DNA of 64,000 bases from Candidatus Riflebacteria bacterium HGW-Riflebacteria-1. GTDB lineage: Bacteria; Muiribacteriota; Ozemobacteria; Ozemobacterales; Ozemobacteraceae. The notes beneath the pieces were generated by a model. That model was not told the origin of the DNA, did no database searches, and saw only the letters and a program-made list of their open reading frames with translations. Below, in pieces: positions 5,051 to 27,692 of this stretch. The stretch is taken from contig PGYB01000011.1 in assembly GCA_002839445.1 (NCBI GenBank), forward strand, positions 13,817-77,816, given 5' to 3'. Position numbers and translations under genes: made by a program. Positions within the stretch are counted from its first letter, which is position 1. Each line of letters starts with the position of its first letter.

Positions 5051-7711
5051 TTACTCTCCTCGCGGTAATTTTCTAAGACCCAGGCGGTCATAAACAAACT
5101 TGTCCAGGCCCAAAGAAAATGATAGTTCACCATCTAATCTTCTTGAAACTACAGGCTCGGTATCGGAACTTACGCCTTTTGCCATAAAAGCCGGGATGCT
5201 AATCTGTTTGAATTCGGTATTGAAGGCACTAATTGTAGCCTCCGAAAAGATCGCACATCTATCTCCTTCACCAAGGCGGGTTTGGATTTTTTCGTCTTTT
5301 ACATCGCCGCTGTTGTATTCCCCTAATGGGTTTTCCCACTCAAATCGGTTAAGAGCCGCTCCTGTTGATTTCCCAAAAGCTTTCCCGCGAACCAGTTTCA
5401 TTTGTTCGTTGAAACACTCCGCTGAATCGCATATCATTTTTAATGCTTCAGAATGCATGGTGTTTTCAATCAGTTCCCGGTTCATGTCAGGAATTGTCAC
5501 GCACTTGTGCTTTTCGATCTGTTGCCTGGTAGCTTCAATAGTTACCAGGTTTTCATAAACCACGCCTAACCCCATTTCTGTTTTTATATAATCAGAGCTT
5601 TTGTTTGTTGATATTTCGCTCGCAATCTTGCCGATGCCTTTTCTGGGCTTGTTAACTATGCAAACAGGTTCTTTGAACATGGGGTTACGGTCTGCTCTAA
5701 CGTGCCTGTGCAAGCGGCCAATTCTTTGTAAAAGCACATCCATTGGCGCCAGGTCGGTAATCATGAAGTCAGCATCAATATCCAAACTCTGCTGCACAGT
5801 TTGAGTGGCACAAACCACACAACCTTCTGCTTTAGAGCCTTTCCCGAAGCTTTTTTCCAGAGCAAGGTCGAGTTTTTTTCGATCGTCTGGAACGAATCTT
5901 GAATGATGAGGAGCCGGGAGTCCAGAGCATCTGAAAAGACAATCAGTCGAAGCTTCTGCTTCTGCAATTTTCTCAAGTTCATACTGTGTTTTGATACAAT
6001 CACCGACAGTGTTTCGGATAATAAGAACTCGCCCGCCCAGTTTGGCTTTTTCTAATGCCAGTCTTGCCGTATTTTCAAAATCGAGTAGTTCTGTCCGCCA
6101 GGCAACTACCTTTTTTTCTCCCGCAGGTGGCAAAGCGATCTGAACGAGTTCTGAGTTGACAGCTTTGCTGACAAGTAGTGGAAAGTTCCTTTGAGCAGCT
6201 ATTTCTAGAGACAGGGTATCAATCTTTTTTCCGGCAATTCCCAGATATGTCTCTGCCATCTCGCAGCCTAGTGTGGCTGACATAAGTAATGAGTGCCCAG
6301 CTGATTTAATGTGGGTTTGCAGAACAAATTTTAGAATTCGGTTCATATATTCATCAGAAGCATGGACTTCATCGACAACAAGAAATAATCTTTGTAAAGC
6401 TGCAGCCCTTAACAGAGAGTGTTTTACGGCAAGTTGAGAAAGAAGAATCTGGTCGATTGTGCCAACAATAATAGATCCAGCCAGATATCTTTTGGGATTT
6501 TCTGCCGCCCAGCCGCGCAGTCTAAGCCTGTCATCAACGACTTCGTCATCTGACCAGAGCACTTTGAAACCCGGTAGTTTCTGCCCTTCCTGGTCATCAG
6601 CCTTTAAATAGCCTGGAACCGCCAAAATAACTGGTGGGCGGGTTTTATCATCTGGAAAAGACTTCGCAACGTAGCCTCTGATTCTCTCAAAAATTTGAGT
6701 TGCAGCTGTTCTCGTTGGCAGGGCGAAATACATGCCATCAACAGCTCCAGCTTCCATTAAGCGTAAGAATCTCCCAAAGCATGCTTCGGTTTTCCCGGAA
6801 CCTGTAGCTGACTCTAGAATTGTTATCGAACCGTTACCTACAATTGGCATTTGAGCCGTAACCTTTTGTATTTCATACAGCGGAAAGTTAAAAATTCCGG
6901 GAAGGTCATAGCCAGCATTTGCAAGATAATCTTGAGCGTTACATGTTTCAACTCCAATTGCTTTCAGTGCTTCAGGAATCCTTGGCAAAACTGAAGTTGC
7001 TCGGTCCTCGCCGGCTTGAGAGAACGAGAAAAACCTTGTATCAGAGGCTATCCAGTCAGCCAGGCAGACAAGTCCACTGAACATGTACTGGAAATAGCTA
7101 GAATCAGGCAACTTGTCTTCTAACAAGTCCGAACGTAAGTTTGGAAAAATTGAAAAACAGGCATCAGTAACGCGTTTAAGGCCATCAAAAGGGTTGATGC
7201 CACAAGTTGGTTTCCAGTGAATGGCTTTCGAATACTGTTCACAGCCATCTAAGCGATATGTTTTACCATGATGCATTATTGATGCAATAAGATAAAAACA
7301 AGATGAGTCATTGGCGCCCCATGGCTCGATTTCTTTATAGCGTAACCCTGACAGCAATTGGGCATTAAACAGTTCTGAGTTGTAAATCAAACCTAATGCT
7401 TCTCGAACATGGCCGGCTAAGAAAGTTTGATTACTTTTTGCTCTGTTTTGGAAGCCGTTGTTGAGTTTGCCGAGATCATGCAAGGTGGCAAAAAAACTTA
7501 ATCGGTCAATCTGAACTTCAGTCAGCTCTCTTTGCCCGACTAGGCTGGCCAGAGTGTTTCTTATCTTTGTTGAAGAGCAGATGGCTTTAAAAACCAGACC
7601 CACATCAATACAATGGTCGATCAGCGGGTGCCAACTTGCAGTGTTGCCTGCTTCGTCATGCTCAAGTTTTGCCCAAAAATCGGTTGGTTCGCCCCTCATC
7701 GAAGACCTCAA
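5051..7711 (-). CDS. cas3: Cas3 HD nuclease/helicase (type I signature protein)
   Basis: An 886-aa protein. The N-terminal HD domain has motifs HPLIDHCIDVG and LHDLGKLNNGFQ. It is followed by an SF2 helicase with Walker A LESATGSGKTEA and DExH-like VVDEVHASDEY. Its stop is 2 nt from the cse1 start. Confidence 0.9.
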   Translation of the reverse strand: MRSSMRGEPTDFWAKLEHDEAGNTASWHPLIDHCIDVGLVFKAICSSTKIRNTLASLVGQRELTEVQIDRLSFFATLHDLGKLNNGFQNRAKSNQTFLAGHVREALGLIYNSELFNAQLLSGLRYKEIEPWGANDSSCFYLIASIMHHGKTYRLDGCEQYSKAIHWKPTCGINPFDGLKRVTDACFSIFPNLRSDLLEDKLPDSSYFQYMFSGLVCLADWIASDTRFFSFSQAGEDRATSVLPRIPEALKAIGVETCNAQDYLANAGYDLPGIFNFPLYEIQKVTAQMPIVGNGSITILESATGSGKTEACFGRFLRLMEAGAVDGMYFALPTRTAATQIFERIRGYVAKSFPDDKTRPPVILAVPGYLKADDQEGQKLPGFKVLWSDDEVVDDRLRLRGWAAENPKRYLAGSIIVGTIDQILLSQLAVKHSLLRAAALQRLFLVVDEVHASDEYMNRILKFVLQTHIKSAGHSLLMSATLGCEMAETYLGIAGKKIDTLSLEIAAQRNFPLLVSKAVNSELVQIALPPAGEKKVVAWRTELLDFENTARLALEKAKLGGRVLIIRNTVGDCIKTQYELEKIAEAEASTDCLFRCSGLPAPHHSRFVPDDRKKLDLALEKSFGKGSKAEGCVVCATQTVQQSLDIDADFMITDLAPMDVLLQRIGRLHRHVRADRNPMFKEPVCIVNKPRKGIGKIASEISTNKSSDYIKTEMGLGVVYENLVTIEATRQQIEKHKCVTIPDMNRELIENTMHSEALKMICDSAECFNEQMKLVRGKAFGKSTGAALNRFEWENPLGEYNSGDVKDEKIQTRLGEGDRCAIFSEATISAFNTEFKQISIPAFMAKGVSSDTEPVVSRRLDGELSFSLGLDKFVYDRLGLRKLPRGE

Positions 7712-12612: not shown

Positions 12613-15493
12613 AAACAAGATACATATCAGTCGCCGCCTCTCGGCAGCAACTCTGGCACTTGCCTGGTTCACGGTGTTTGCCGTGCCGGTTCTGCTGCTG
12701 CAGTTCAGTCTTGATTATCTCTTTAAACTGACACTGCAGGCTAATCAGCAGGCGGCTGCTGCAACGCTGATTGGTGAAATGAGCAGCTTCAAACATGATC
12801 TGGAGACTGAAGCTTTTGTCGAGCGCAAGCTTAAAGCTTTTTTCGGCGGTCAGAATCAACCAGAAAACAACGCGAAAGTAATGCTGCAGAAGCTCAACTC
12901 AACAAGCGGGCTGAGAGTTGCCGGAGTCGTTACCTGTGCCGCCGATACCATGGCAGTCGATTTTGAACTGGACCAGAGCTTGCAGCAACAGATGCCGACT
13001 TTGCCGCGAACCATGATGCAGCGATATCTGTCAGCTGTGAACTATCAGCAGCAGAATGATTTCTACCGCTCTTCTACTACGGCAACCGGCACTGGCAAGC
13101 TGTTTGCTGACTATGACAAGGCCCGCAAAGATGCTGACAGCTTTTTCAGGCGCCAGTTTGGGTTGATCGCCGAGATTCCTTTGCAGCCAGACAAGGTTTG
13201 TCGCACTGTGTCGGCAAAGCTTGCGGGCAGCGCCTTTTTTTACTATCACACTTTCACCAGCAGCGCTGGCGACAAAAATCGAATGAACGGGGGATGTCTG
13301 CTGATTTTGCGGGGGTGTGATCTGAATCAGCGCCAGATCTGGCAGGAAACGGCCAGCATAGCAAACTCTGGTGTCAAACGAAGTTATAGCCGGCTGGCAA
13401 TACCGCTAGCCGGCAAAAGCAACCTTACCCGCGAGATAATCACACGATTCATCTCTGATGAAACAGGTTTTCATCTCGTGTCAGCGCCGCCGGATCATAC
13501 TCTGGTTGACTTGATACAGCGCGGCACTTTTACATTGCAGCAACTTAACCCGGTTCTCAAGGCATTGCCGCTGCTGCAAGTTTCTGTGCCGGCGCGTGAT
13601 CTGCATCACCCTCTTGCCGGTTGGGCCAGGTCAATAAACATGTCTGCACGGCTTTTTGCTATGCTTGGTGCAGTATTTCTGCTGTATCTGTTTTTTTACG
13701 GAATAGACCTCAGACTTGGCATAAGAGGCAAAGTACTGCTCGGGGCCTGGACTATGCTGTTGCTGCCGATAGTGCTGCTGCTCGCCGGCTTTGTTACCTG
13801 GAGTCAGTTTAACCGGATCTATGGCTGGTATCAGGCCGAAGAACTGCAACAGCAGTATTTTAACGAGCTTTATGATGGATTTGGCAGCTACCTTACCCTG
13901 CTGCAGAAGCATAGTATTGCTGTTGCCGCCGAAGTTGACAAGGCACGTAAAAACGACGAAACAGCAATCCCGAGAATCTTGCAAACCGGCCTGGCCAGCT
14001 CCTGTGCTTCAGATATTTATCTCGACCGGTCAGCCGGGCTTAGTCTGCATTTTAAGTCACAAAACTATCACTGGCCAGGCTCGCAGAAAGAAGAATCCGC
14101 GCGGCGGCTGGTTTATGACACAATCCTCAATTCTTTTGACCGCCAGGGCAATTTTGTTGAAACGCTTTCGGACGGTAAAAATCCCGGTGTCACCTCGGTT
14201 GATGCCGCTCTGGTGAATAACCTGATCAACAGCTGGGCAAAGCCGTTCAATATGCTGCGCATCAACACAAACAACCGCTTTTCGACGGCTTTTGTCTACA
14301 ATGATGATAAATACAGCCCTTACGCTCTATTGTCGTTCAAGTATTCTGATATAACCTTGATGCGCGAATTTATCGGCCGGCATTTCAGGCCTTCACCCAG
14401 ATTTTCTGGTATTTCGGCAAAGTTTTTTATTGCAGAAAATAATGGAACTGGTTATCAACTCGTCGATCTTGCCGATGGCCAGCCCCTGCAGAACCAGTCG
14501 TTACTGGAAAAAATCAGCATTGCTGAAGACGTGGAAAACTTTGTCTGGCGCGAACGCAATCAGAATCTTATGCAGACGCGCTGGTTCAACGACTATCCAC
14601 TGGTTATAATGGTTGCCGGCGAAGTTTTTGCCGACGAATCTTCAGTACATCTGGTGCCGGCCATGTTGATTGGCTACGGACTGTTGTTGATACTTTTCAT
14701 TTATCTTTTTTTTGAGTTGATCTATCTGCGCCCGATTCGCGAATTTATCAGAGTAACTGCCGAGGTCGGCGCCGGCAACTATGCCGAGCAGGTGCGCCTG
14801 CAGGCCAATGATGAATTCGGTGATCTGCAGAAGGTATTTGCCGGTATGATTCAAGGGCTTGAACAGCGCCGCAAGCTTACTCACTTTGTTTCGCAGGATG
14901 TTCGGACTGCTGTCGAAAGTGGTGATGATGCCATGACTCCTGGCGGCGTAAGGGTAGCGGCAACTGTGGTCTTCATTCAACTGCAGTCTGTCGAAAGTTT
15001 TGAAAATTGCAGCGCTGACAGAAAGTTCGCGCTGCTCAGTCACTTTATTTCGACAGGTGATCGCATTGTTGATTGCTTTGGTGGCGTAATTGACAAGGTA
15101 GTTGAAGATACTCTGATGCTGGTATTTCGTGAAAATTCGTCATGCGATAGTCACTGTTTGCGCGCCTGCCGCGCCGTTCTGGAGATCGCTGCCGACTTGC
15201 AGGGTGACGGGATGAATATCAGAGCAGGAATAGCCAGTGGCAATGTTGTTTTGGGCCGGATAGGTTCGCGACTTGGCAAGCTGGATTACACTGTTATCGG
15301 TGACACGGTTAATCTGGCAGCACGCTTGAAAGCTTTGCCCGCCAAAGCCGTTGTAACTGGCATCATAATCGCCCCTTCCACAATCAGAATCCTCAGGGGC
15401 AAGGCCCGCGTCGGCTTTCTCGAACGCACCGAAATCAAGGGTAAAAGCCGCAAGTATCCGCTATATGAACTTTTAGAGCTTCGTCATGGATGA
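12604..15493 (+). CDS. membrane sensor pseudo-cyclase/cyclase B-type subunit (HAMP plus cyclase domain lacking the first metal Asp but retaining Asn/Arg)
   Basis: The start MAENKIHISRR overlaps the A1 stop by 8 nt (ATGGCTGA). It has the same four-transmembrane-helix, two-ectodomain and HAMP architecture as A1. The C-terminal cyclase fold has VVFIQLQS instead of F.DI.GFT, keeps the KVVEDTLMLVF region, and has the canonical DYTVIGDTVNLAARLKA. Confidence 0.8.
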
Positions 15494-15544: not shown

Positions 15545-16771
15545 TCAGTATTTTCTGGCTGCGGGCGTTTTTTGTGATCTGAGAAGTTCTGCTGCTATAC
15601 TTGCCACCGCCAGATCTGCGCTGTCAGTTGCATTGACCATAGAATCAAGATCACTGTTGAGCGAACTCTTATCAAATTCTTTCTGGTAAAATTCTTTTGC
15701 TTCTTTCAGGTTTCCGGCTCGAACGTTTATCAGAACCAGCAGCGGATAAATCAGAGTGGCATGATTGGGGCTGTCCTTGCAAAACTTAAGCGCATCAGCA
15801 ATAATCTCTTCGTTTTTTCCCATTTCATAATCAGTAAATAGTTTGAAATACCTGATAAACAGGTTTTCTGGATTAAGCCGGTGAGCAATTTCCAGCTTTG
15901 CGGCAGCTGAAGCGTAGTTTGCAAGTCTGAAATTCGCATGCCCGTTGATTGCATAGCCGCCATAGAACTCTGGAAGCTGTTTTTCGAGAATTTCTACTTC
16001 AGCTATGACCTTGCTCAGATCCTTTCCTTTTGAGTAAAGACTTTCGAACCTGGGTAAGTTATACTCAGGCAGGGTTTTAAGATACATGGATTCAGCAAAA
16101 ACCAGAATTGAAGCCAGAAGAATGCTGTAGCTGAACAACCTGGAAACACTTGTTTTCAGCCAACCGGCTCTTCGGATAATGATCATTGCCGTGAACAGCA
16201 ATCCTCCGATAAAACCGCCCAGATGCCCGGCGTGGGAAACGGGATTACCCATTCCCAGAATTTCGTTTCTCTCAAATCCTTTCCAGAATTGGGGATCGCT
16301 GATATAAATCAAGATTGATACTTCTAACAACTTTCTGATTCTGGTGCGAAATGTTATTTCTTTCTCAAACATGGAGAAAACAAAGTATGCGGCGAAAACT
16401 CCGAACATGATCCCTGAAGAGCCGACCATTACTAATAAAGGCTCAAACCATAATCCTGCAATACCGCAGGTATACATACTGAATATAAGGATTCCGGAAT
16501 ATTCCAGCGGTTCAAGCTTCTTTTCCAGTTCTTTTCCGATCAGGAAAAGGAAAAGCAGGTTAAGCAACAGATGAGAAAGATGCAGATGCAAAAGATTGTG
16601 GGTGAAAAATCGCCAGATATCGCCTGAAAGAAACTTCGGGGCATAGGCTGCTCCAAAATTCATGAGCAACGAAAACGTTATCGGTTCAGTGCTTTGCCCG
16701 GCTACCCAGAAATATGTTGCAGCACAGATCAGGCAGAATAGCATTGTCTGTAGAGGCTTTCTTTCGATCAC
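15545..16771 (-). CDS. rhomboid family intramembrane serine protease with C-terminal TPR repeats
   Basis: The rhomboid motifs are FTHNLLHLHLSHLLLNLL (the H...H...N region), the catalytic GSSGIMFGVF (GxSG), and the histidine in AGHLGGFIGGLL. The C-terminal ~180 aa are TPR-like helical repeats. Confidence 0.8.
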   Translation of the reverse strand: MIERKPLQTMLFCLICAATYFWVAGQSTEPITFSLLMNFGAAYAPKFLSGDIWRFFTHNLLHLHLSHLLLNLLFLFLIGKELEKKLEPLEYSGILIFSMYTCGIAGLWFEPLLVMVGSSGIMFGVFAAYFVFSMFEKEITFRTRIRKLLEVSILIYISDPQFWKGFERNEILGMGNPVSHAGHLGGFIGGLLFTAMIIIRRAGWLKTSVSRLFSYSILLASILVFAESMYLKTLPEYNLPRFESLYSKGKDLSKVIAEVEILEKQLPEFYGGYAINGHANFRLANYASAAAKLEIAHRLNPENLFIRYFKLFTDYEMGKNEEIIADALKFCKDSPNHATLIYPLLVLINVRAGNLKEAKEFYQKEFDKSSLNSDLDSMVNATDSADLAVASIAAELLRSQKTPAARKY

Positions 16772-17048: not shown

Positions 17049-18176
17049 ATGGAGCTGTTTAATTCTCCGGAATTTGCCGGGTTGGTGGCTTTTGTTTTTA
17101 TCGTGCTGGTAGCCTGGGCCAATCGCTGCTCAAAGTGCGGAAAGCTTTTTACCTGCAAGATCAGAAGCCGCACGCAAACCTCAGAAGGCTACACGCACTC
17201 ATGGGAAGTCGACGAGAAATCGCAACGCGGCAAAAGCGTTCGTCGTTATACTTACCAGTACAACGAAACCTGGGCTTGCAGCAAATGTGGGCATGAATAC
17301 AGCACTTCCTGTTCGAGCTCTTACAGTCTGCCGTGTGGCTACTTTTCCCCAGAAGACCCTGCTAATGCCCAAAATAAAGGTCGCGGCTGCCTTAACCCTC
17401 TCACCTGGCTGAACTGGCTCAATCCTGTGGCCTGGTGGCGCTCGATTCCAGGTAAAAGGTATCTGCCGCTGCTGCCTGTCATCTTTTTTATCGGAATGGT
17501 CGTTTTTGATACCGAAGTCCTGAAGTATCCGACGCATTGGCAGGATTATCTCGAAGATTATGTTGAATTTCTGCTTGAGCCTCTGTCGCCGCGTGCCAAC
17601 AGGCGTACACAGCTCGAAATGGTCGAGGGGCGCTGGCAGACACAGCGCCGCATTCAGGAGTTCAAGCCGGTTGAATACGAAACCTGGGAAGACAGACTTC
17701 CCGAGAATGCAAGGGTTATTGAAAAGACAACAAGGCAACGTCCCCCTCAGTCGTATTATTACACCTATACAACAGCAACAGAACCCGCTACCTGGGTCAG
17801 GTATTCGATAGATTTATGGGTCACCATCGGTACGCTTACCGCCTCCGGCACAGGGTTACCGATTGCTTATCCTGATGATCCGGTCGCGCCCTCGCCCTCG
17901 CCTGGTGAAGCGGTTTACGGTGCCCGCCGCTCAGAGACGCCTACGGTTACCTATTCTCTGGTATTCAGAGACGCTGAGTCTGAAAGGGTCTATTGGGTAG
18001 AAACAATCGGTTTTATCCGCAAGGAAGACAGGTATTTTGCCTGGCAGCGCGAGATAAGTGAGACTGCTTATCGTACACTGATTGCGAGTTCGCAACCATT
18101 GCCAGCTCGGGTTTACGCTCGAAGTTATAATGAGTCACCAAATATTTACATCTATGTTGACGACGTACCTTATTGA
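17049..18176 (+). CDS. hypothetical membrane protein with Cys-x-x-Cys zinc-ribbon motifs
   Basis: An N-terminal transmembrane helix. CSKCGK and CSKCGH motifs are present, plus a second transmembrane segment. An RBS AGGAGAACAG precedes the ATG. Confidence 0.6.
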   Translation: MELFNSPEFAGLVAFVFIVLVAWANRCSKCGKLFTCKIRSRTQTSEGYTHSWEVDEKSQRGKSVRRYTYQYNETWACSKCGHEYSTSCSSSYSLPCGYFSPEDPANAQNKGRGCLNPLTWLNWLNPVAWWRSIPGKRYLPLLPVIFFIGMVVFDTEVLKYPTHWQDYLEDYVEFLLEPLSPRANRRTQLEMVEGRWQTQRRIQEFKPVEYETWEDRLPENARVIEKTTRQRPPQSYYYTYTTATEPATWVRYSIDLWVTIGTLTASGTGLPIAYPDDPVAPSPSPGEAVYGARRSETPTVTYSLVFRDAESERVYWVETIGFIRKEDRYFAWQREISETAYRTLIASSQPLPARVYARSYNESPNIYIYVDDVPY

Positions 18177-18240
18177 GCGGTTGGTGTGCGCCTTTGTTTA
18201 TCAGTGTTTGACAATGAAAAAAAATATTTTTAAAAAATGT

Positions 18241-18270
18241 TTGACTTTAGTAAGCGCTTTGCGGTAAACT
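18241..18270 (+). promoter_or_regulatory. sigma70-like promoter (TTGACT-N17-GTAAACT) for the downstream ORF-free region
   Basis: TTGACT at 18241-18246, a 17-nt spacer, and TAAACT at 18265-18270. No ORF follows it. Confidence 0.45.
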
Positions 18271-18277
18271 GTAATTG

Positions 18278-19370
18278 TTGAACGAACAGATCATTGACAA
18301 TAGAATCGGTGGCCGCAAGGCTGATACTTCTGAGCTCCGGCAGGTTTCAGGCAGTTATCTCAAGAAGGGTGCTGATGTCTGGTAACAGGTGTTAAGGCCC
18401 CGAAGGGAATAAATAACCTCGGGTAACGTGAAACTGAAGAAGAAGTATGAGTTGAAAGGCGAAAATTCCATGGGGGGAGGGCTCCGCATCGTCGGAGAAA
18501 CCAACTACGGCAGCAGAAAAACTCTAAGAGGGTATCAAACCCTGAAAGAGGAAGGATTTATCCAGGGCTGTTGTAGCCAGATACCCCGAAGGACAAAAGG
18601 TCATGAGAGTTGTAATCGCGATGTCTGGGTGAAACTTGACAGCGTAGGAGACGCTCTGAACCGGGAGCAAAGCTTCAAGGTTTGACTGAATCTCAAGATG
18701 GAAACCGGCTGCTTGCAGCAGGGGGCCAGTTAGAACCAGGGTCGAGCGAACGTAAGTTCGGCGGCCAGGCAGTGGGAACTGCCAGTGATTTCTGGAAGAA
18801 AACCGTGTAGAGACAGTAACAACGAAGGAGCATGATAGCTGGAAACAGTTATCGATCGGCTCAGGGTAAGACTCTGTAGATCAGGACCCTGCAAGTGCCA
18901 GTGGGATGGAATAAGCCCACAAGCTACCAAGGACGCAAGTTCTGCTGAGAGGTTGAGAAAACCTGGGAGCGGAATGCGACAGGGCCGGAATCCTGTCTGT
19001 CACGTCCCGGTGGTGAAGGCGCTAAGAGGGAAAGAACCTAAGAAGGCGTTGGTGTTATCCAACCAATGAAAGTGTGTGTGTAGAACCTTGAAGTCGGCAG
19101 AAGTCTAGAAGAGGATGGAAAGATCTGGTTAACTCCAAATCTGGTGATTGTATCGACGGCCTCGAAGGCGATGAACGTCTGAGGCTTGGCGTAACCAATG
19201 TGCGTCATAGTGCAATTGCGTTAAAACTCTAGAAGGCATGTAACGACACGAAGGGGTGACCGGAAGCGGTGACGCGACTGGCCAAGCACCCACTGATAGG
19301 TCTTCAGGAAGGGAAACCGATTCTAATCTGTTAGTTCAATAAAGAACCCCCGGTCAAACGGGGGTTTTTT
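18278..19370 (+). ncRNA. candidate large structured non-coding RNA (~1.1 kb), class not identified
   Basis: About 1.1 kb in which the only ORFs on either strand are two short overlapping ones (85 and 66 aa), with none in the final ~440 nt. The plus strand is strongly purine-rich and T-poor. Perfect GNRA-loop hairpins are present, CGAAC-GUAA-GUUCG and GGCAGU-GGGA-ACUGCC, near 18750-18800, plus GACAGG-GCCGGAAU-CCUGUC. The region ends in an intrinsic terminator. Confidence 0.45.
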
Positions 19371-19371
19371 C
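19345..19371 (+). terminator. rho-independent terminator (AACCCCCGgtcaaaCGGGGGTT plus a T tract)
   Basis: An 8-bp GC-rich stem, a 6-nt loop and a TTTTTT run seen directly in the sequence. Confidence 0.75.
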
Positions 19372-19382
19372 TATTTCACAAA

Positions 19383-19440
19383 ACTTTGATTTTTAAATTA
19401 CCAGGATTGAAACTTTGATTTCTAAATTACCATGATTTTT
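19383..19440. repeat. tandem direct repeat, 2 x 28 bp (AACTTTGATTTYTAAATTACCAKGATT)
   Basis: Two near-identical adjacent 28-mers. Confidence 0.7.
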
Positions 19441-19450
19441 TCTGCGCAGG

Positions 19451-19471
19451 GGTTCAACATGTTGAACCCCT
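19451..19471. promoter_or_regulatory. perfect 16-bp palindrome GTTCAACATGTTGAAC within GGGGTTCAACATGTTGAACCCC (copy 1)
   Basis: A 22-bp near-perfect palindrome. A second copy lies at 19832-19853. The two copies flank the small gene at 19470..19664. Confidence 0.6.
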
Positions 19472-19664
19472 ACTCGATGTCGACCGAGACGTAGTCGCCC
19501 TCCTGCAGATCGCGATTTTTGAATTTTTCGCGTGGCACATAAATTTCCTGCATTGCCTCAGGATCATCAGGGTGACGAACAACAACAACAACGATGCCGG
19601 CTGTGATGCGGTCGACAACTCCCTGCACCCGTTTTTTCTTTTTAGTATCTCTGGTTCCTTTCAT
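19470..19664 (-). CDS. small hypothetical protein (64 aa), possibly DUF3006-like
   Basis: An ORF with a hydrophobic core GVVDRITAGIVVVVV and a lysine-rich N-terminus. The family assignment is tentative. Confidence 0.45.
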   Translation of the reverse strand: MKGTRDTKKKKRVQGVVDRITAGIVVVVVRHPDDPEAMQEIYVPREKFKNRDLQEGDYVSVDIE

Positions 19665-19755
19665 GGCGTATCCTCCTCTTTCTTTCTATCTTTTTTTCTC
19701 TATCCTAATTCTAATGATTTTTGCTGTTGTTTGCAGGTGTTTTTTGCAGGGGGCT

Positions 19756-19853
19756 CAACATCGTAGAGGGGCAACATCGTAGGGGTTCAACATCGTATGG
19801 CTCAAAATCGTAGGCGTTCAACATCGTAGGTGTTCAACATGTTGAACCCCTGC
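19756..19853. repeat. iteron-like array of six direct repeats of CAACATCGTAG with a 16-bp period, ending in the palindrome GTTCAACATGTTGAAC
   Basis: Repeat starts are at 19756, 19772, 19788, 19803, 19819 and 19835, a spacing of 15-16 bp. The last unit is the palindromic copy. The array lies in the divergent promoter region between the small minus-strand gene and the ACT/UPF0210 operon. Confidence 0.7.
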
Positions 19854-20286: not shown

Positions 20287-21648
20287 ATGCTTTTTTCGCT
20301 CGAAGAAGTCATCGAAACCATCAGTGCCGTAGGTGTCGAAACCTTTGATATCCGCACGGTTTCATGCGGTATCAACATACTGAGTTGTGCTGATTCTGAT
20401 GTTAACAAATGCGCCGAAAAGGTCTACGAAAAGGTAGTCAGAGTCGGTCGCGATCTTGTGCCAACCGCCCGCATCCTCGAAAAAAAATACGGTATCCCCA
20501 TCGTTAACAAACGCATTTCAGTTACCCCGGTTTCAATGCTTGCTAACGCATTCACCGAGCCTACCGCCGTACCTATAGCCATTGCTCTCGATAACGCCGC
20601 TAAAGAACTGGGTATTGATTACATCGCCGGCTTTGGTGCCCTTGTTCATAAGGGTTTCACTCGTGGCGACCAGATTCTGATTAATTCGATTCCTGATGCG
20701 CTCTGTAGCACTGATCGAGTCTGCTCCAGCGTTAATATCGGCAGCTCGCAGTCCGGTATCAACATGGATGGCGTCTATCGCATGGCCGAAGTCGTCAAGG
20801 AAGCCGCCGAACGTTCGCGCGATAAAAACGGCCTGGCCTGCGCCAAGCTGGTTGTGTTCTGCAACGCTGTCGAAGACAACCCCTTCATCGCCGGCTCTTT
20901 CCTCGGTGCCGGTGAAGCCGAAGCCATAATTAACGTCGGTATTTCTGGCCCCGGCGTCGTGCGCGCTGCACTCGAACGTGCCGGCAACCTCTCATTTGGC
21001 GAACTTTCTGAACTTATTAAAAAAGTCAGCTTCAAAATTACCCGGACTGGTGAGCTTATCGGCCGCGAAGCATCACGTATGATGGGTATTCCATTCGGAA
21101 TTATCGATCTGTCACTGGCTCCAACACCAGCTGCGGGCGATTCAATCTCTGATATTCTCGAACTCATGGGACTCGAACGCACCGGCTGCCACGGCACTAC
21201 AGCGGCTCTTGCCATGCTCAATGACGCCGTTAAAAAGGGCGGCATGATGGCGGCCACCTACGCCGGCGGCCTCAGCGGCGCCTTTATACCGGTTACCGAA
21301 GATGCCGGCATGTGCCGCGCCATTGAAGACGGTGCTCTCAACATTCAAAAACTCGAAGCCATGACCTGCGTCTGCTCGGTTGGCCTTGATATGGTCGCGA
21401 TTCCCGGCGACACTTCGGTCGATGTAATTGCCGGCATTATTGCTGACGAAGCTGCTATCGGCATGATCAACCACAAGACCACCGCCTGCCGCCTGATCCC
21501 GGTACCCGGTATGAAAGCCGGCGATGTCGTTGATTTCGGCGGCCTGCTTGGCAAAGGCCCGGTAATGGAAGTAGGCCGCCACTCTCCGGCCGTGTTCGTG
21601 CGTCGCGGCGGCCGCATACCAGCTCCCGTCCACAGCATGAAAAACTAG
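20287..21648 (+). CDS. UPF0210 family protein (DUF711)
   Basis: A 453-aa protein. The N-terminus EEVIETISAVGVETFDIRTVSCGINIL resembles the UPF0210 start (EILETI..EENLDIRTVTMGISLL). It follows the ACT gene, and an RBS GATGGAGG is present. Confidence 0.7.
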   Translation: MLFSLEEVIETISAVGVETFDIRTVSCGINILSCADSDVNKCAEKVYEKVVRVGRDLVPTARILEKKYGIPIVNKRISVTPVSMLANAFTEPTAVPIAIALDNAAKELGIDYIAGFGALVHKGFTRGDQILINSIPDALCSTDRVCSSVNIGSSQSGINMDGVYRMAEVVKEAAERSRDKNGLACAKLVVFCNAVEDNPFIAGSFLGAGEAEAIINVGISGPGVVRAALERAGNLSFGELSELIKKVSFKITRTGELIGREASRMMGIPFGIIDLSLAPTPAAGDSISDILELMGLERTGCHGTTAALAMLNDAVKKGGMMAATYAGGLSGAFIPVTEDAGMCRAIEDGALNIQKLEAMTCVCSVGLDMVAIPGDTSVDVIAGIIADEAAIGMINHKTTACRLIPVPGMKAGDVVDFGGLLGKGPVMEVGRHSPAVFVRRGGRIPAPVHSMKN

Positions 21649-21726: not shown

Positions 21727-24672
21727 ATGTATAAAAACAAAGAGCTTCATCTGCGCGGCATGATCAGCCTGGTGTTTGCTTTTGTCGTGCTGGCTCCCCT
21801 GATCCTTATTGTTGCTGACCTCGCTAATGTGGCAAAGCAGCTTTGCCAGCAAAAGCTAGCTGCTGCCCGCCAGGAAGTCAAACAGGAGCTTGCGTTATTT
21901 CGCGAAAGTCTTATTCCACGGCAGTTTGTCGAGAATCTCATCAAGGCCGGCGAAGCGTGTGTCGGTCTGAACCCTGAAACCATGCAGCGCCCGGTGTTTG
22001 CGCGCAATCAGGATGCCGGTGTTTTTACTTCTGCAACCATAGCTCAGCTGCTCGAGTTTTATCAGCGCCAGACTGGAATAAAGCCCCTGGTTATGGTCTC
22101 TTTCAACACAGACTATGCCAATGTCTGGAGCTGGTTTAATGAAGACTATTCCGCTCTGAGAACACTCACTGATTCCGACCGCCGGCGTTTTACCTCGTTG
22201 CTCCCGATCTTTGTAGCAGACACAGCCACCTTTACTCCGGTCATTTCGAGCAATCCTGATGCTTTCGCGAACTTTAACAAACTTTTCGCGGGTGCCCTTC
22301 TCGGCGATCGGCGGGACTTCGCAACGCAAAAGTTCTTTTATGACTATCTGGGCGATCTGGCATATCGACCGCCCCACTATGGCCGGGTTTATGAGATGGC
22401 AACGACGCGTCTTGGTTCCCGGCGGTTTTTTACCTATCATCTGCCCGTCAAAGAAGGTGAAATGGTATACGGCGGTTATTTTGTGTTATTCGGCAGCAGA
22501 AATATCGCCACCGCAAAAATTCTTGAGTTATCCAGAAAAGGCACCCGTCCCGGCATGAAAAGGTTTTTTACCTCGGCTGACAAGTTCAGAAATAATCAGA
22601 TAGTCAGTCACAACAGCTTGTCGCTGAGTATGCCCTTTCCCGTCGAGCTCGCTTCCTACGACCGTCTGAGCGGCTCAATAAGCCAGTTCCCGGAAAGAAT
22701 AGCCGTTGCATTGTCAATAAGCGATCTCAGGAAGACTCATGACGATTATCTGAGCAATCTCGCTGTTTTCTGCCGTTTCGTCAGTCTAACGATATTCGCG
22801 GTAGCGGTTTATTTTACCCTGTTTGGCTTTCCTGGTGGCTTTCGACTGCGTCTGCGCATGATTGCCATCATTGCCCTGACCATTTTTTTACCATGGATCA
22901 TTCTTGGCTATTTTTGTCTCAGTCTGTTTGACAGCGTGCAAACCCTGGCTGGTCACGAACTGCGCGCAGAAGCTGGAAGTTCAATGTATCGTCTGATCAG
23001 TTATTATCACGATCAGAAACTGCAGCTCAATCTGGAACTGCTGAAAGCAAAAGACCGTCTGCTCAGATATGACGACAAAGCGCCAGAAGAACTCGAGAAA
23101 CTGCACGCACATAACATCGTTCCACCGGGCAGCAATTTTGATCTGTTATATTTTCGTGCAGATGGGTTCGCAAGAACATTCAGAGCAAAACATACTGAAA
23201 ACATATCTGTCCGCCGTATTGATTGTTATCTTGCCGCCAGATACATGGATAATCTCGGGGTGATCGACCGCGGTGTTCCAGCTAATCGTAAGTATCTTGA
23301 ACAGGGCGAATATTCTGCTGGCTTTATGGATTCACTTCAGATCAATTATTCAGAGCACACCAATATGTTTCTTGAAGGCGTCGAAACCCGTGAATGGAAA
23401 AAAGCCGACGAACTTTCCCGTATGGTTTATTTTCTGCTGCCTGATCCGAAATTGCCGGGGCAGCCGGTCAGGTCTGTCGCCAAAATTTCAATAAGTAGCC
23501 CAAATTTTGTGATGATAAGGCCTGGCAGCTTTAATCCCGGAGTCTATTCGCAGAGACTTCCGCAGCAGCAGCATGATTTTTTGATTGGTCAGCGTCGGGT
23601 TGACGACTCAATTCTGCGCTGGTGGCCTGATTATATCAATTCTTCTTCTGAACTCAAGCGCCAGGTTGATCTGGCTGCAAGCACTCGCAGTGGCGGCTCC
23701 AGGCTGACTCAGGATGGTAACGGTTTCAGGTTTGTTAATCGCCGCTACCTGAAAAGTCAGAGTCTTGTTTTCTCTGGCGTTTCTACAGCAGCGCAGGATC
23801 TCAGGGTAGAAATGCTGCTCAAGCTGTTTCCATTCGTTCTGCTGGCGCTGGCGCTGATATGCCTGTTTTTGTTTGCCGATCTGCTGGCCGCCATGTTCAT
23901 CAACCCGGTAGCCGGTTTTCGTTCCGCAACAGCTGAAATAGCTGGTGGCAACTACCAGGTGGCCGTAAAAATAGCGGCAACTGATGAGTTTTCTTCGCTT
24001 GCTGATGCATTTAACCGCATGGCTACCGGTCTTGCTCAACGCGAAAAAATGCGCCGCTTTGTTTCCGAAAACCTGTTTGAACGCATCGGGCAAAGCAGCA
24101 GTGATAATGCGGGAGCCAGTGAAGTCACTTTGCTGGCCAGTGACATTCGCAGCTTTACCACGCTCAGCGAAAAGCATGAGCCGCAGCAGATTGTCAGTCT
24201 GCTCAATGACTATTTTACCGAGATGGAATGCGCGATCAAAGAATCTGGCGGACTGATCGAACGTTTCGTGGGGGACGCAGTTGTCGCCGTTTTCTACAAC
24301 GACCAGACCGAAAAACCTGAGCATCGTGCGGTGCAGGCTGCTGTTCGTATGCGGGCGCGACTGGCCGGCCTGAACCGTCAGCGAACAGCTGCCGGGCTGT
24401 TTAACTTCGACAATGGCATAGGTATTGCAACCGGCGAAGCGGTTTCGGGAATTGCCGGCAGCTCGGCCGGCCGCCAGATCTTTTCTGTTATTGGCGAAGT
24501 GACCGGTCTTGCCGAAAAGCTCGAAAGCGCAAGTCGAAATGTGGCGTCACGCATTCTGATCTGCCCGAAAACAGCGGCCGGACTAGCTGATAGAACAGAT
24601 CTCAGCGAGGTGACCGGACAGTTTGGATTCGCAGCTTTTACCATAGTGGCCGACGAGGTGCTCAATGGCTGA
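21727..24672 (+). CDS. membrane sensor class III nucleotidyl cyclase, A-type subunit (paralog 2)
   Basis: A 981-aa protein with the same architecture as A1. The cyclase core is TLLASDIRSFTTLSEKHEPQQIVSLLNDYFTEMECAIKESGGLIERFVGDAVVAVFY. The Asn/Arg position is degenerate (GEVTGLAEKLESASR). Confidence 0.85.
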   Translation: MYKNKELHLRGMISLVFAFVVLAPLILIVADLANVAKQLCQQKLAAARQEVKQELALFRESLIPRQFVENLIKAGEACVGLNPETMQRPVFARNQDAGVFTSATIAQLLEFYQRQTGIKPLVMVSFNTDYANVWSWFNEDYSALRTLTDSDRRRFTSLLPIFVADTATFTPVISSNPDAFANFNKLFAGALLGDRRDFATQKFFYDYLGDLAYRPPHYGRVYEMATTRLGSRRFFTYHLPVKEGEMVYGGYFVLFGSRNIATAKILELSRKGTRPGMKRFFTSADKFRNNQIVSHNSLSLSMPFPVELASYDRLSGSISQFPERIAVALSISDLRKTHDDYLSNLAVFCRFVSLTIFAVAVYFTLFGFPGGFRLRLRMIAIIALTIFLPWIILGYFCLSLFDSVQTLAGHELRAEAGSSMYRLISYYHDQKLQLNLELLKAKDRLLRYDDKAPEELEKLHAHNIVPPGSNFDLLYFRADGFARTFRAKHTENISVRRIDCYLAARYMDNLGVIDRGVPANRKYLEQGEYSAGFMDSLQINYSEHTNMFLEGVETREWKKADELSRMVYFLLPDPKLPGQPVRSVAKISISSPNFVMIRPGSFNPGVYSQRLPQQQHDFLIGQRRVDDSILRWWPDYINSSSELKRQVDLAASTRSGGSRLTQDGNGFRFVNRRYLKSQSLVFSGVSTAAQDLRVEMLLKLFPFVLLALALICLFLFADLLAAMFINPVAGFRSATAEIAGGNYQVAVKIAATDEFSSLADAFNRMATGLAQREKMRRFVSENLFERIGQSSSDNAGASEVTLLASDIRSFTTLSEKHEPQQIVSLLNDYFTEMECAIKESGGLIERFVGDAVVAVFYNDQTEKPEHRAVQAAVRMRARLAGLNRQRTAAGLFNFDNGIGIATGEAVSGIAGSSAGRQIFSVIGEVTGLAEKLESASRNVASRILICPKTAAGLADRTDLSEVTGQFGFAAFTIVADEVLNG

Positions 24673-27586
24673 AATCACCACCCGCAGCACCATAAAAATA
24701 GAGCGTCGTGTCGGCTTTATGACGCTGCTGGCTGTCTGGTTGGCCGTGTTTGTTTTGCCCGTTGTTCTGCTGCAACTGAGTCTCGACTATCTGTTTAAAC
24801 TGACGCGCCAGGCGAATTTGCGGGCGATGACTCCGAAAATGACCAACGAGATGGACAGTTTTCGCAACGACCTCGAAATTGATAACTATCTGCAGAGAAG
24901 CCTCGAAAAGTTCTTTGCTGACCCCGCCAGCCAGTCTGAGAACGATCCGGCAATGCTGGCAAAAAAACTGCGCGCGACTGCAGATCTGCCGGTGGCCGGC
25001 GTAATATCACATTCAGCCGATACCATCAATGTGGAACACTGGTTCGGCGAACAACTCGCCAGAGAAATCCCCAGTCTTTCGCGCAGTCTCACACGCCGCT
25101 GGCTGGTATCAGTCAATGAGCAGCAGCTTTTCCGCTTTCACAGCACTGCAGCCGAAGCCGCTACCCAGGCACTTTTTCGCTTTGTCGATCCGGCAAAGTC
25201 GAAAAGAGATTCAGACCTGTTTTTTCGACGAATGTTTGCCCTGATCGCAGAACTTCCGTTGGTTCCCCGACGGATCACCCGCTCGCTGTCATCGCGACTG
25301 GGCGGCCCGGTGTATTTTTATTACCATCCCTTCGTTGCACCGTCTGCATCTGGTCTGCACATTACCGGGGGGTGTCTGCTGATTTTCCGCGGCCCGGATA
25401 TCGCATGGCGAAAAGTTGCCCGCGCAGCAGTTGAGCGCTCGGCGCCAGGACTGTTTCGCTGTTTTGCCAGGCTTTCGGATTCACTTTGGGAACGCGATAC
25501 CAGTCTTCAAAAGGTTATCACCAGGTTTTTTGAAGACTCTGACGGATATCACTTTCAGTCGACGCTTTCTCAGAGCAGCATGGTCGATCTTACGCAAAAC
25601 GGCTCTTTCATGCCGGTCCGGCTGCGTGAATTTGCCAGCAGAATGCCGCTTCTGCAGATCTCAATTGCCGAATCGCAATTACAGCACCCGTTGTTTCCAT
25701 ATCGATCTCATATCAGCTTTGCCGGAAAACTTTTTGTTTTGTTCGGTACTCTTTTTCTGACCAGCTTTTTTATGTTTGGCTTCGAATTCAAAGCAGGTAT
25801 AACGACCAAAGTGGTTATTGGTACCGCATTTATTCTGCTGCTGCCGTTTCTGCTGCTTCTCGCCGGTTTTGTCAGCTGGAACCAGTTTAACCAGGTTGTC
25901 GGCTGGTACCGGTTGGAATCAGGACAGCAACAGTTGTTTTCAGATTTTACCGACGATTTTGCCACTTTCCTGATCAGTTTGCAGCGCAATACTTATGATT
26001 TGTCGTTACAGCTTGAGAGGCCTCTTGATTCGGGAAAAGACGATGAAATTCAAGGTGTTTTAGCGCGCTGGCTCGACCAGAATCCTGTTGTCTCAGGCCT
26101 GCGTTTTGACCGCAAGTTTAACGACAGCCTGAATTTGCGCTCGCCTTCAGCAAAGGATTCTGATGATGCTGTGCGCGAATCTACCATGCGCCTGGTTGCT
26201 GCAACGATAATGTATGGGTTTGATGATGAAGGAGCGCTGAAAGAGTCCAATAAATTCGGCCAGGAGGGCGATATCACTTCGATAAATTCAAGCTTCATTA
26301 ACGACGTGGTCAATCGTTGCGGCGGAGTTTATCAGTTTGCTTCTTTTGGCAGTAGCCGTAGATTTTCGTCCATATACTATAATTACCCCGGCAAATACAG
26401 TATTCGTGCCATCATCACTGCAGCTTTTGAGCGTGAAAATCTGTTGCGTGAATTCGCCATCAGGCACTTCGCTGCACCATCCGATATTTTTCATCAGTTT
26501 TTTCTGATTCGCGAAGATCTCGGCGTGCCGAGATTTTACAGCCTTACAGACAACAGCGAAGTAACCGATGCAAAGCTGCTCGAACATCTTAATCTGGCGC
26601 TGATTTCCGGGCACAATCTTTATGAGCCGGAAAAGAACCAGCTTGCCCAGATTTTTGCGATGAGTGATATGCCATTGCTGATGCTGACGCGTGGCACAAT
26701 TGGCAGCAGCCAGTTGTTTGCACCGGGTTTTACGATTCTGCTGCTTTTGTATGCGTTGCTTCTCATGGTGCTGATCCTGCTGGTTTTCAAACTGATATAT
26801 CTACAGCCTATCGCGGAATTTATACGAGTCACCGAGAGTGTTGCGGTCGGCGACTATCAGCAGCAGGTCGAACTTTCACAGACCGACGAGTTTGGCGATC
26901 TTAAGGTCGCCTTTGATAGCATGATCAAAGGCCTCGAACAACGTCGTCGCCTCAGTCATTTTCTTTCAAGTGAAGCATTGCGTGCGGTAGAGTCTGATGG
27001 CGATGACAGTATGGCTCCGGGTGGAATACGTCTTGAGGCCAGCGTTGCTTTTGTGCGTCTGCATAACCTTCAGCAGCATGCCCAGGGCTCACAGGCAATT
27101 TTTAAGACACTTGGCGACTTTATCAACGAAGCTGACCGTGCTGCCATGCGTTACGGCGGCGTTGTCGACAAGCTGATCGAGGACACTCTCATGCTGGTAT
27201 TTCGAGGCAACAGCGGTTGTTGCGATCATGCGCCTGCTGCTGCCACGGCGGTACTCGACCTGGTTGCAACGATGCGGAGTTGTGGTTTTGAGCTGCGTGG
27301 AGCTATTGCCAGCGGAACAGTGGTCTCTGGCCGTATTGGCTCACGCCTTGGCAAGCTTGATTTTACCGTGATCGGCGACACGGTAAATCTTGCCGCCCGT
27401 CTCAAGGCCGAAGCGCATCGCACCACACAGACCGGAATCATCGTAGCGCCCTCGACCATACGCCTGTTGCGCGGTCGCGCCCGTGTCAACTTCATTGAGC
27501 GCGTTGAAATCAAGGGTAAAAGCCGCGAATACCCGCTTTATGAGCTGACCGCCCTGCGTCAGAGCTTATCAAAAACTGAAAATTAG
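24665..27586 (+). CDS. membrane sensor cyclase B-type subunit (paralog 2)
   Basis: The start MAEITTRS overlaps the A2 stop by 8 nt (ATGGCTGA). The HAMP region is IYLQPIAEFIRVTESVAVGDY. The cyclase-like core is SVAFVRLHNL ... DKLIEDTLMLVFRG ... DFTVIGDTVNLAARLKA. Confidence 0.8.
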   Translation: MAEITTRSTIKIERRVGFMTLLAVWLAVFVLPVVLLQLSLDYLFKLTRQANLRAMTPKMTNEMDSFRNDLEIDNYLQRSLEKFFADPASQSENDPAMLAKKLRATADLPVAGVISHSADTINVEHWFGEQLAREIPSLSRSLTRRWLVSVNEQQLFRFHSTAAEAATQALFRFVDPAKSKRDSDLFFRRMFALIAELPLVPRRITRSLSSRLGGPVYFYYHPFVAPSASGLHITGGCLLIFRGPDIAWRKVARAAVERSAPGLFRCFARLSDSLWERDTSLQKVITRFFEDSDGYHFQSTLSQSSMVDLTQNGSFMPVRLREFASRMPLLQISIAESQLQHPLFPYRSHISFAGKLFVLFGTLFLTSFFMFGFEFKAGITTKVVIGTAFILLLPFLLLLAGFVSWNQFNQVVGWYRLESGQQQLFSDFTDDFATFLISLQRNTYDLSLQLERPLDSGKDDEIQGVLARWLDQNPVVSGLRFDRKFNDSLNLRSPSAKDSDDAVRESTMRLVAATIMYGFDDEGALKESNKFGQEGDITSINSSFINDVVNRCGGVYQFASFGSSRRFSSIYYNYPGKYSIRAIITAAFERENLLREFAIRHFAAPSDIFHQFFLIREDLGVPRFYSLTDNSEVTDAKLLEHLNLALISGHNLYEPEKNQLAQIFAMSDMPLLMLTRGTIGSSQLFAPGFTILLLLYALLLMVLILLVFKLIYLQPIAEFIRVTESVAVGDYQQQVELSQTDEFGDLKVAFDSMIKGLEQRRRLSHFLSSEALRAVESDGDDSMAPGGIRLEASVAFVRLHNLQQHAQGSQAIFKTLGDFINEADRAAMRYGGVVDKLIEDTLMLVFRGNSGCCDHAPAAATAVLDLVATMRSCGFELRGAIASGTVVSGRIGSRLGKLDFTVIGDTVNLAARLKAEAHRTTQTGIIVAPSTIRLLRGRARVNFIERVEIKGKSREYPLYELTALRQSLSKTEN

Positions 27587-27692
27587 TGTAGCCTTATTGC
27601 ACTGTTTTGCATTGGCTGGAGAGGTTACACCTGTTATCATTTCTCAATTGCGGATGATAACGTGAAAGCGAAATACGCCTGGATAAAACGGA

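Follow-up and report, generated by a model that had tools for sequence, protein, structure and literature searches.

A Candidate Gene for a Large Structured Non-Coding RNA in One Clade of Subsurface Riflebacteria

Introduction

What does a bacterial DNA segment of about 1.1 kb encode if it is bracketed by a predicted promoter and terminator and contains hardly any open reading frame (ORF)? This question is raised by a locus of Candidatus Riflebacteria HGW-Riflebacteria-1 (phylum Riflebacteria), located within the 64,000-nt stretch of DNA analysed here (hereafter the window; positions refer to it unless another locus is named). The first-pass annotation of this window proposed a large structured non-coding RNA (ncRNA) of no recognised class, and this proposal is supported by a null result in Rfam, covariation, selection and the absence of a conserved ORF. 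We conclude with good confidence that the segment 18277–19370 of the plus strand is a stand-alone gene for a structured ncRNA of ~1,095 nt, representing a new family outside Rfam 15 and most likely acting in trans. A role as messenger RNA (mRNA), cis-acting leader or base-pairing small RNA appears unlikely.

Very few bacterial RNAs exceed ~500 nt and have a complex conserved fold; they include ribosomal RNA (rRNA), group I and group II introns, OLE, GOLLD, ROOL and few others; each of these large RNAs other than rRNA proved to be a ribozyme or showed an unexpected architecture. The RNA-only nanocages of GOLLD and ROOL exemplify the latter (PMC12286853). An RNA of ~1.1 kb would rank among the largest bacterial RNAs of unknown function, and the phylum of the one described here is uncultured and has hardly been studied by experiment.

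Homologues and Selection

Homologues of the segment were reached by three routes: relatives of the 375-amino-acid (aa) protein encoded upstream, a pattern scan of metagenomes, and relatives of the downstream DUF711 gene screened with an nhmmer nucleotide profile. A genome-collection scan with the 375-aa neighbour gave a single locus (L005). The metagenome scan with the pattern GNRA-N6-AGTGATTT-N4-AAGAAAACC returned three true homologues from the same clade and nine unrelated chance matches. Loci L023, L027 and L030 deviate from this pattern; the string GATACCCCGAAGGACAAAAG is invariant in all ten aligned sequences. The L023 homologue is masked in gene tables by two spurious ORFs and was revealed by the nhmmer profile. 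Since the searches were based on exact patterns and synteny, more distant members may exist.

The collection of homologues, advised by the first-pass annotation as a check, thus yielded RNA copies in eight distinct lineages of one Riflebacteria clade, 83.7–97.5% identical over ~1.09 kb, with covariation well above controls. Alignment A4 gives identities to the window of 97.5% in L005 (GWC2_50_8), 94.0% in L006 (sediment metagenome), 92.5% in L007 (GCA_018818125.1), 92.3% in L030 (assembly from ENA) and 83.7% in both L023 and L027 (Logan assemblies). The copy in L010 is ~96.5% identical, L014 and L015 are partial copies with ~97% identity, and four assemblies of the same species carry RNAs that are 100% identical. 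The window and every homologous locus contain one copy each. In the RNA-bearing homologues DUF711 is at least 90% identical at the aa level; the RNA was not found within the fetched flanks of L024, L025, L026, L028 and L029, in which DUF711 is at most 89% identical and the ACT–DUF711 gene pair is present. The known range of the RNA is narrow: eight lineages in one clade of subsurface (groundwater) Riflebacteria.

The RNA sequence is under strong purifying selection relative to neutral sites. Identity at four-fold sites of DUF711, which are near saturation, falls to 67% in L005, 57% in L030, 54% in L006, 50% in L007, 48% in L023 and 40% in L027, and the RNA evolves at 0.06–0.21 of the rate of these sites (Jukes–Cantor distances, six lineages). 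The upstream 375-aa protein changes fast, retaining 52–55% identity where DUF711 keeps 94%; in L007 it has dropped to this level while the RNA retains 92.5%. A pseudogene would drift neutrally, and a region changing at 6–21% of the neutral rate is not one, which excludes the decayed gene that had been named as a possible refutation. The ranking of RNA identities matches that of the flanking genes, pointing to vertical descent and not to recent horizontal transfer; judged from these alignments, the RNA appears to be inherited vertically at one fixed chromosomal site.

Coding Potential

The region carries no conserved reading frame and is non-coding. Only two ORFs of at least 60 aa touch positions 18280–19370, namely 18428–18685 on the plus strand (85 aa) and 18730–18930 on the minus strand (66 aa); smaller ORFs of 40–56 aa also occur, chiefly on the minus strand. 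The two short ORFs listed in the first-pass annotation do exist, but they do not overlap each other as was stated there. Its claim that the last ~440 nt are ORF-free holds at a threshold of 60 aa, but three minus-strand ORFs of 47–56 aa are present at 19038–19293. Over 360 codons per frame, the plus strand contains 24, 15 and 23 stops and the minus strand 9, 11 and 10. None of the ORFs is intact across all homologues: a stop interrupts the 85-aa ORF at codon 40 in both L006 and L007, and the start or the frame of each remaining ORF of at least 40 aa is lost in one lineage or more.

A protein query was assembled from stop-free segments of at least 18 aa from all six frames (1,874 aa when joined) and compared with 5.8 billion proteins. 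It gave no match at E ≤ 0.01, a weak negative, since the gene-called 85-aa ORF was not returned either, probably because the long X-containing query swamped the word index. With no match at this threshold and no ORF surviving in all homologues, the significant protein hit envisaged earlier as a refutation did not appear.

Secondary Structure and Covariation

The plus strand folds with a minimum free energy of −372 kcal/mol, compared with −327 ± 8.6 kcal/mol in shuffled sequences (z = −5.3; z = −2.3 for the minus strand). A consensus structure was derived with RNAalifold from ten sequences (alignment A4, 1114 columns). It comprises 328 bp in 52 helices, is closed by a helix joining the 5′ and 3′ ends and has an energy of −359 kcal/mol when projected onto the window sequence. 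The fraction of cells paired is 98.6%, with 96.5% in shuffles and 37–42% in slid (register-shifted) controls.

Compensatory changes support a conserved, strand-specific secondary structure. Pairs changed on both sides number 40, versus 15.6 ± 2.9 in shuffles (a count reached in none of 500) and 2–10 in slid controls; the corresponding cells number 71, versus 19.2 ± 3.7 (again 0 of 500). The seven closest sequences alone give 10 such pairs versus 3.0 ± 1.4. These changes are spread over ~25 helices along the entire molecule. In the window sequence 43 pairs are G–U, which are workable on the plus strand only, so the plus strand is the functional one.

On the plus strand, six hairpins have a GNRA loop and a stem of at least 4 bp, versus 1.15 ± 1.07 in 1000 dinucleotide shuffles, none of which reaches six; the minus strand has no GNRA hairpin with such a stem. 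Five of the loops (GURA, GUAA, GGGA, GAAA and GUGA; positions in Table 1) are kept on covarying or invariant stems. The hairpins read by eye earlier, CGAAC-GUAA-GUUCG (18747–18760), GGCAGU-GGGA-ACUGCC (18768–18783) and GACAGG..CCUGUC (18979–18998), are all present.

Covariation is distributed unevenly among the helices. In domain I, 11 pairs changed on both sides lie in H5–H9, and the loop is GUAA or GUGA in every sequence. Domain II possesses long invariant stretches, including CCAUGGGGGGAGG and GAUACCCCGAAGGACAAAAG; four covarying pairs fall in H14, and H11–H13 and H15–H17 are invariant. The hairpin H19 has three covarying pairs. In domain III, covarying pairs occur in H22, H24, H27 and H28, the tetraloops are invariant and the junction strands AGUGAUUU and AAGAAAA are near-invariant. 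H29 has one covarying pair and three pairs changed on one side, under an invariant GAAA loop. Further covarying pairs are located in H34, H35, H36 and H38 of domain IV, in H40 (two pairs) and in H41, H43, H45, H47 and H51 of domain V. The pairs of the closing helices H1–H3 are invariant or changed on one side, hence compatible with pairing and unproven by covariation; the long-range helix H20 is nearly invariant (one non-pairing cell) and has no covariation support. Conserved complementary unpaired segments of at least 5 nt, as expected of pseudoknots or kissing loops, were not found in a crude search over all sequences.

The base composition agrees with this fold. The plus strand of the region contains 30.3% G, 29.6% A, 20.3% T and 19.7% C, with a GC skew of ~+0.22 and an AT skew of +0.14 to +0.27 (mostly +0.18 to +0.27). 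Its purine fraction of 0.61 is the peak value among the window's 1-kb tiles (mean 0.487, standard deviation 0.028), bearing out the strong purine bias noted at first reading. Among unpaired positions 49% are A and 76% purine, and paired positions are balanced, so that A-rich junctions and G–U pairs explain the skew. No internal repeat structure was found within the block by the repeat and tile analysis of the window.

Promoter and Terminator

The RNA would be transcribed separately, from its own sigma-70-type promoter to its own intrinsic terminator. A consensus scan places the promoter at 18241–18270 (TTGACT, 18 nt, TAAACT), the same site as the TTGACT-N17-GTAAACT of the first-pass annotation. 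Upstream sequence could be compared in six lineages (window, L005, L010, L007, L023 and L030). In all six, the −35 hexamer is TTGACT or TTGACA, followed by a variable spacer of 17–18 nt; the −10 hexamer varies among TAGACT, TAAACT, TAAGAT and TATCTT and is followed by seven variable bases and then by the conserved GTTGAACGAAC. The distance from the hexamers to the first conserved base is fixed while the spacer diverges, which suggests a real promoter footprint with a start near 18277. This start was deduced from promoter geometry and the onset of conservation. An A/T-rich tract directly upstream is mostly kept in homologues, whereas the promoter spacer 3′ of it diverges, hinting that the tract may serve as an UP element. 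A second promoter-like site at 18278–18306 lies inside the conserved block; we take it as part of the RNA because an 8-nt insertion interrupts it in L007.

At the other end, the strong rho-independent terminator previously placed at 19345–19371 was recovered by scan as a G+C hairpin with a T-run at 19345–19370. Its G+C core spans 19347–19352/19359–19364, and the scan also calls this hairpin on the opposite strand. Four pairs of the terminator stem covary; for example, CCCCCGG/CCGGGGG is replaced by GCCUCCGG/CCGGAGGC in L023. The conserved block starts at 18277 and has the terminator as its last element; divergence is free past 19372 and in the promoter spacer, and a phylogenetic footprint marks both the promoter hexamers and the terminator as conserved.

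Table 1. Features of the candidate RNA locus (window positions unless a locus is named; helices numbered as in the consensus fold)
Feature	Position	Strand	Remarks
Candidate RNA gene	18277–19370	+	~1,095 nt, predicted start to end of terminator T-run
A/T-rich tract (UP-element-like)	18214–18239	+	directly 5′ of −35 hexamer
−35 hexamer TTGACT	18241–18246	+	consensus scan
−10 hexamer TAAACT	18265–18270	+	consensus scan
Closing helices H1–H3, 5′ strand	18277–18310	+	22 bp, pairs with 19316–19340
Domain I (H4–H10)	18312–18460	+	GURA tetraloop hairpin, loop 18382–18385
Domain II (H11–H17)	18467–18593	+	long invariant stretches
Hairpins H18 and H19	18598–18645	+	covarying pairs in H19
Long-range helix H20, 5′ strand	18647–18652	+	pairs with 19300–19305, encloses domains III–V; RNAalifold
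Domain III (H21–H28)	18653–18831	+	GUAA (18752–18755) and GGGA (18774–18777) tetraloop hairpins
GAAA-tetraloop hairpin H29 and hairpin H30/H31	18834–18882	+	H29 loop 18842–18845
Domain IV (H32–H38)	18887–19030	+	H38 is the GACAGG/CCUGUC hairpin
Hairpins H39 and H40	19037–19068	+	covarying pairs in H40
Domain V (H41–H51)	19071–19294	+	GUGA-tetraloop hairpin, loop 19269–19272
Long-range helix H20, 3′ strand	19300–19305	+	pairs with 18647–18652
Closing helices H1–H3, 3′ strand	19316–19340	+	pairs with 18277–18310
Intrinsic terminator	19342–19370	+	stem 19342–19352/19359–19369, loop GUCAAA, U-run 19365–19370
Rhomboid gene	15545–16771	−	absent from L005
375-aa protein gene	17049–18176	+	two hydrophobic segments, two CxxC pairs (zinc-ribbon-like)
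64-aa basic protein gene	19470–19664	−	weak DUF3006/cold-shock-like matches
ACT-domain protein gene			upstream of DUF711, same strand as RNA
DUF711/UPF0210 gene	20287–21648	+	
Spurious gene call	L001/L002 11380–11637		inside RNA
Spurious gene call	L010 1684–1941		inside RNA
Spurious gene call	L030 414–671		inside RNA
Spurious gene calls	L023 3701–4051 and 4309–4488		inside RNA
Spurious gene call	L008 11445–11852		inside RNA

Searches for Known RNA Families

A cmscan search against Rfam 15, the check recommended at the outset, matched no known class: there was no match at gathering scores anywhere in the window, only noise at E ≤ 10 in 18100–19500 (nearly all of it on the terminator) and, in the two homologous loci that diverge most (L023 and L027), nothing at E ≤ 1. 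In the window, L023 and L027, no Rfam 15 model of OLE, GOLLD, ROOL, HEARO, raiA or T-large, nor of rRNA, RNase P, tmRNA, SRP or 6S RNA, gave a match. The RNA was likewise not found in phage or plasmid collections (blastn, distant mode), and three sequence patterns had no matches in viral contigs. Our literature search found no earlier description of a Riflebacteria ncRNA, a DUF711-linked RNA motif or a matching new large ncRNA.

Genomic Neighbourhood

In five lineages, namely the window, L005, L006, L007 and L010, the 375-aa gene adjoins the RNA. Its product matches no Pfam or NCBIfam family; the protein family to which it belongs is very small, 1.84 billion proteins yielding 27 representatives. 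The gene is missing in L023 and L027, where genes for a ~950-aa uncharacterised protein and a Xer-type tyrosine recombinase lie upstream of the RNA; this pair is inverted between the two loci (L023 1–3449, L027 1–3268). The L030 contig begins ~260 nt 5′ of the RNA and is uninformative on the upstream neighbour.

Between the RNA and the ACT gene, a minus-strand gene for a 64-aa basic protein is directly visible in the window, L006 and L007, and alignment shows it in L005; it is inferred for L010, whose contig stops ~75 nt past the terminator, making five of the eight lineages. It sits in a cassette of ~410 bp (19446–19853), bounded by a 28-nt inverted repeat (19446–19473/19826–19853) that contains the palindrome GTTCAACATGTTGAAC, and the cassette also has about six tandem 16-nt units of GGGGTTCAACATCGTA (19750–19840). 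L023, L027 and L030 lack the cassette entirely, so that it looks like an inserted or tightly regulated module. Directly after the RNA terminator, a 29-nt direct repeat occurs in two copies (19381–19437), one of which is absent in L005. In L030, a CGTAAT/CGTCTT hexamer run (~1365–1440) lies between the RNA terminator and the ACT gene, similar to the (TAATCG)x15 repeat at 57996–58085 in the window; the window also contains a 55-nt tandem repeat of 4.6 copies at 47668–47920.

Six paralogous genes of ~980–1020 aa are arranged in tandem around the locus (9658–15493 and 21727–33555). The four that were scanned (9658–15493 and 21727–27586) carry HAMP and adenylate/guanylate cyclase domains; the fifth (27693–30665) is assigned HAMP and cyclase domains by the gene table and the sixth (30493–33555) is recognised by size alone. 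Farther upstream, ~10 kb from the RNA, a cas3 gene (Cas3_HD, 5051–7711) is accompanied by other minus-strand ORFs, and the block 343–7711 (minus strand) probably represents a cas operon of type I. Neither Rfam nor a tandem-repeat finder reported a CRISPR array in the window.

Mode of Action and Alternative Explanations

We propose that the transcript would start at the TTGACT/TAAACT promoter, with its upstream A/T tract, end at its own intrinsic terminator and fold into a closed multi-domain form, in which the 22-bp closing helices surround five domains of several helices each. Its A-rich junctions and its conserved GNRA tetraloops, at least five in number, are of a type from which tertiary or quaternary contacts are made. 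The RNA would then most likely act in trans as a folded particle, be it a ribonucleoprotein (RNP) scaffold, an RNA-only assembly or a ribozyme. The discrete ~1.1-kb transcript, its tertiary fold and any biochemical activity are what we infer.

The best-surviving alternative, which we nevertheless regard as improbable, is a giant cis-acting leader, riboswitch-like or attenuator-like, that would control ACT–DUF711 through the terminator. Wherever downstream sequence is readable, the RNA with its terminator lies upstream of ACT–DUF711 on the same strand, and the upstream neighbours, unlike this pair, vary between lineages; in L023, L027 and L030 the terminator is only ~100–160 nt from the ACT gene. 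Several observations argue for action in trans instead. ACT–DUF711 has a promoter of its own past the RNA terminator (TTTACC, 17 nt, TATTAT; conserved motif TATCTG.TATATT), a similar motif is present in L029, a relative without the RNA, and the relatives with DUF711 at most 89% identical maintain the operon without the RNA. The opposite-strand 64-aa gene with its own repeat-flanked cassette intervenes in the window, L005, L006 and L007. A length of 1.1 kb is also ~5 times that of any known leader; to our knowledge, none of about this size has been described. For the same reasons, given the conserved ACT–DUF711 promoter and the opposite-strand gene intervening in most lineages, the simple long 5′ untranslated region once considered as a refutation is not supported.

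Less probable still is a protein-sequestering sponge, either CsrB-like or mimicking the anti-Shine–Dalgarno sequence, that would titrate an RNA-binding protein or ribosomes. The purine-rich sequence does contain many GAAG, GGAA and AGGAG-like strings, and GAAG occurs 19 times versus 11.6 ± 3.3 in shuffles. But GGA, AGGA, GGAGG, AGGAG and GAGG are not enriched (GGA 26 versus 31.4 ± 3.9, with few copies unpaired), and the entire 1.1 kb is constrained, whereas sponges tolerate drift between their motifs. We rejected this candidate because GGA and Shine–Dalgarno-like motifs are not enriched and internal repeats are absent.

We give little credence to the view that the RNA belongs to a defence system or mobile element, whether as a group II intron that has no ORF, as the ncRNA of a retron, as the omega RNA of IscB or TnpB, or as a companion of CRISPR or of a defence reverse transcriptase. 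The cas3 operon lies ~10 kb away, and Xer-type integrases occur upstream in L023 and L027. Against this, no reverse transcriptase, IscB, TnpB or transposase gene lies within ±5 kb of the RNA in any locus, confirming what the first-pass annotation had stated for iscB/tnpB and reverse transcriptase genes. Rfam models of group II introns, HEARO, retrons and CRISPR families gave no match at permissive E-values, the phage, plasmid and viral collections searched contain no copy, and the RNA is single-copy, with its own predicted promoter and terminator and apparent vertical inheritance at a fixed site.

It is very improbable, and already largely refuted, that the region is a protein gene in decay or with a frameshift, or that its transcript is an mRNA encoding at least one small protein. 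Gene callers do predict ORFs in it: one of 85 aa in several assemblies, two in L023 (116 and 59 aa) and, in L008, a minus-strand one of 135 aa; such public calls of 59–135 aa inside the RNA, which we regard as spurious, are found in L001/L002, L010, L030, L023 and L008 (Table 1). The low substitution rate, substitutions that keep base pairs and not codons, the interruption of the 85-aa ORF in L006 and L007, the stop density of all six frames and the six-frame search without protein or Pfam-type similarity (a weak negative) all speak against it.

Finally, the idea of a DNA-level element (an origin or binding-site array) acting instead of an RNA, suggested by iteron-like repeats just downstream (19381–19437 and 19750–19840), can be practically dismissed, as these repeats fall outside the conserved block, covariation in the block keeps Watson–Crick and strand-specific G–U pairs, folding is asymmetric between strands, and the promoter and terminator bracket the block exactly.

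A stand-alone, trans-acting ncRNA thus remains our preferred explanation, mainly owing to the separate ACT–DUF711 promoter, its motif in RNA-less L029, the intervening opposite-strand cassette and the lack of known leaders this large. Several points weigh against it. The consensus fold was derived from the same ten-sequence, one-clade alignment that was used to test it. All homologues belong to one narrow clade (DUF711 at least 90% identical at the aa level), so the covariation rests on few independent events, and H1–H3 and H20, being nearly invariant, are beyond its reach. A constant protein partner was not found among the neighbours: L023 and L027 lack the 375-aa gene, and L023, L027 and L030 lack the 64-aa gene. 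The ~1.1-kb transcript itself is predicted from sequence features, the sequence reveals no function, and the constant same-strand position upstream of ACT–DUF711 leaves some room for a role in cis.

Implications

An evolutionary rate of 6–21% of neutral across the whole ~1.1 kb suggests a demanding three-dimensional function. We tentatively entertain, as a possible but rather unlikely reading, that the RNA is the founding member of a new giant “ornate” class, specific to subsurface Riflebacteria: the largest bacterial ncRNA of unknown function, which would be a ribozyme or would assemble itself into an RNP or RNA-only particle. The sequence, ten aligned homologues and consensus structure suffice for in vitro study and for building a covariance model. 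The locus also illustrates that gene callers hide such RNAs beneath spurious ORFs (85, 116 and 135 aa).

Comparison with Known Large RNAs

OLE is an RNA of anaerobes or extremophiles. Like the candidate described here, OLE (RF01071, ~600 nt, Bacillota) is a large, ornate, conserved stand-alone ncRNA of unknown biochemical function. The oapA gene adjoins ole (PMC12054373, PMC9723947), and the small membrane protein gene beside our RNA in five lineages recalls it, by analogy only. However, the Riflebacteria RNA is nearly twice as long, comes from a different phylum and has no match to the OLE covariance model, and the neighbouring 375-aa protein lacks an OapA-like domain. As its gene is missing in L023 and L027, we rejected this protein as an obligatory OapA-like partner.

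Group II introns and RNase P RNA have comparable size and complexity and likewise combine a closed fold of several domains with A-rich junctions and GNRA tetraloops. Our RNA differs from them in matching no Intron_gpII, group-II-D1D4 or RNase P model, and from group II introns also in having no domain V-like hairpin or intron-encoded protein and in being flanked by a predicted promoter and terminator, not by exons. The raiA motif (~200 nt), whose function is still unknown, and the HEARO/omega RNAs are likewise conserved structured bacterial ncRNAs from comparative genomics; they are much smaller, their covariance models do not match, and there is no IscB near the present RNA.

GOLLD (~800 nt) and ROOL (~580 nt) are also giant, multi-domain RNAs with many hairpins, and the candidate shares A-rich junctions and GNRA loops with them. 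In GOLLD and ROOL, A-minor contacts and kissing loops shape the tertiary as well as the quaternary structure of RNA-only nanocages, and OLE too was shown as an RNA-only assembly (PMC12286853). Unlike GOLLD and ROOL, the RNA described here is chromosomal, appears to be vertically inherited, is absent from the phage and viral collections searched, matches neither covariance model and, in the crude search, shows no conserved loop complementarity of at least 5 nt. A covariance-model match is lacking for each of the large ornate ncRNAs, and phylum, length and context differ as well. By its size, complexity and conservation, the RNA is best filed as a new family within a known kind, the large “ornate” bacterial ncRNAs.

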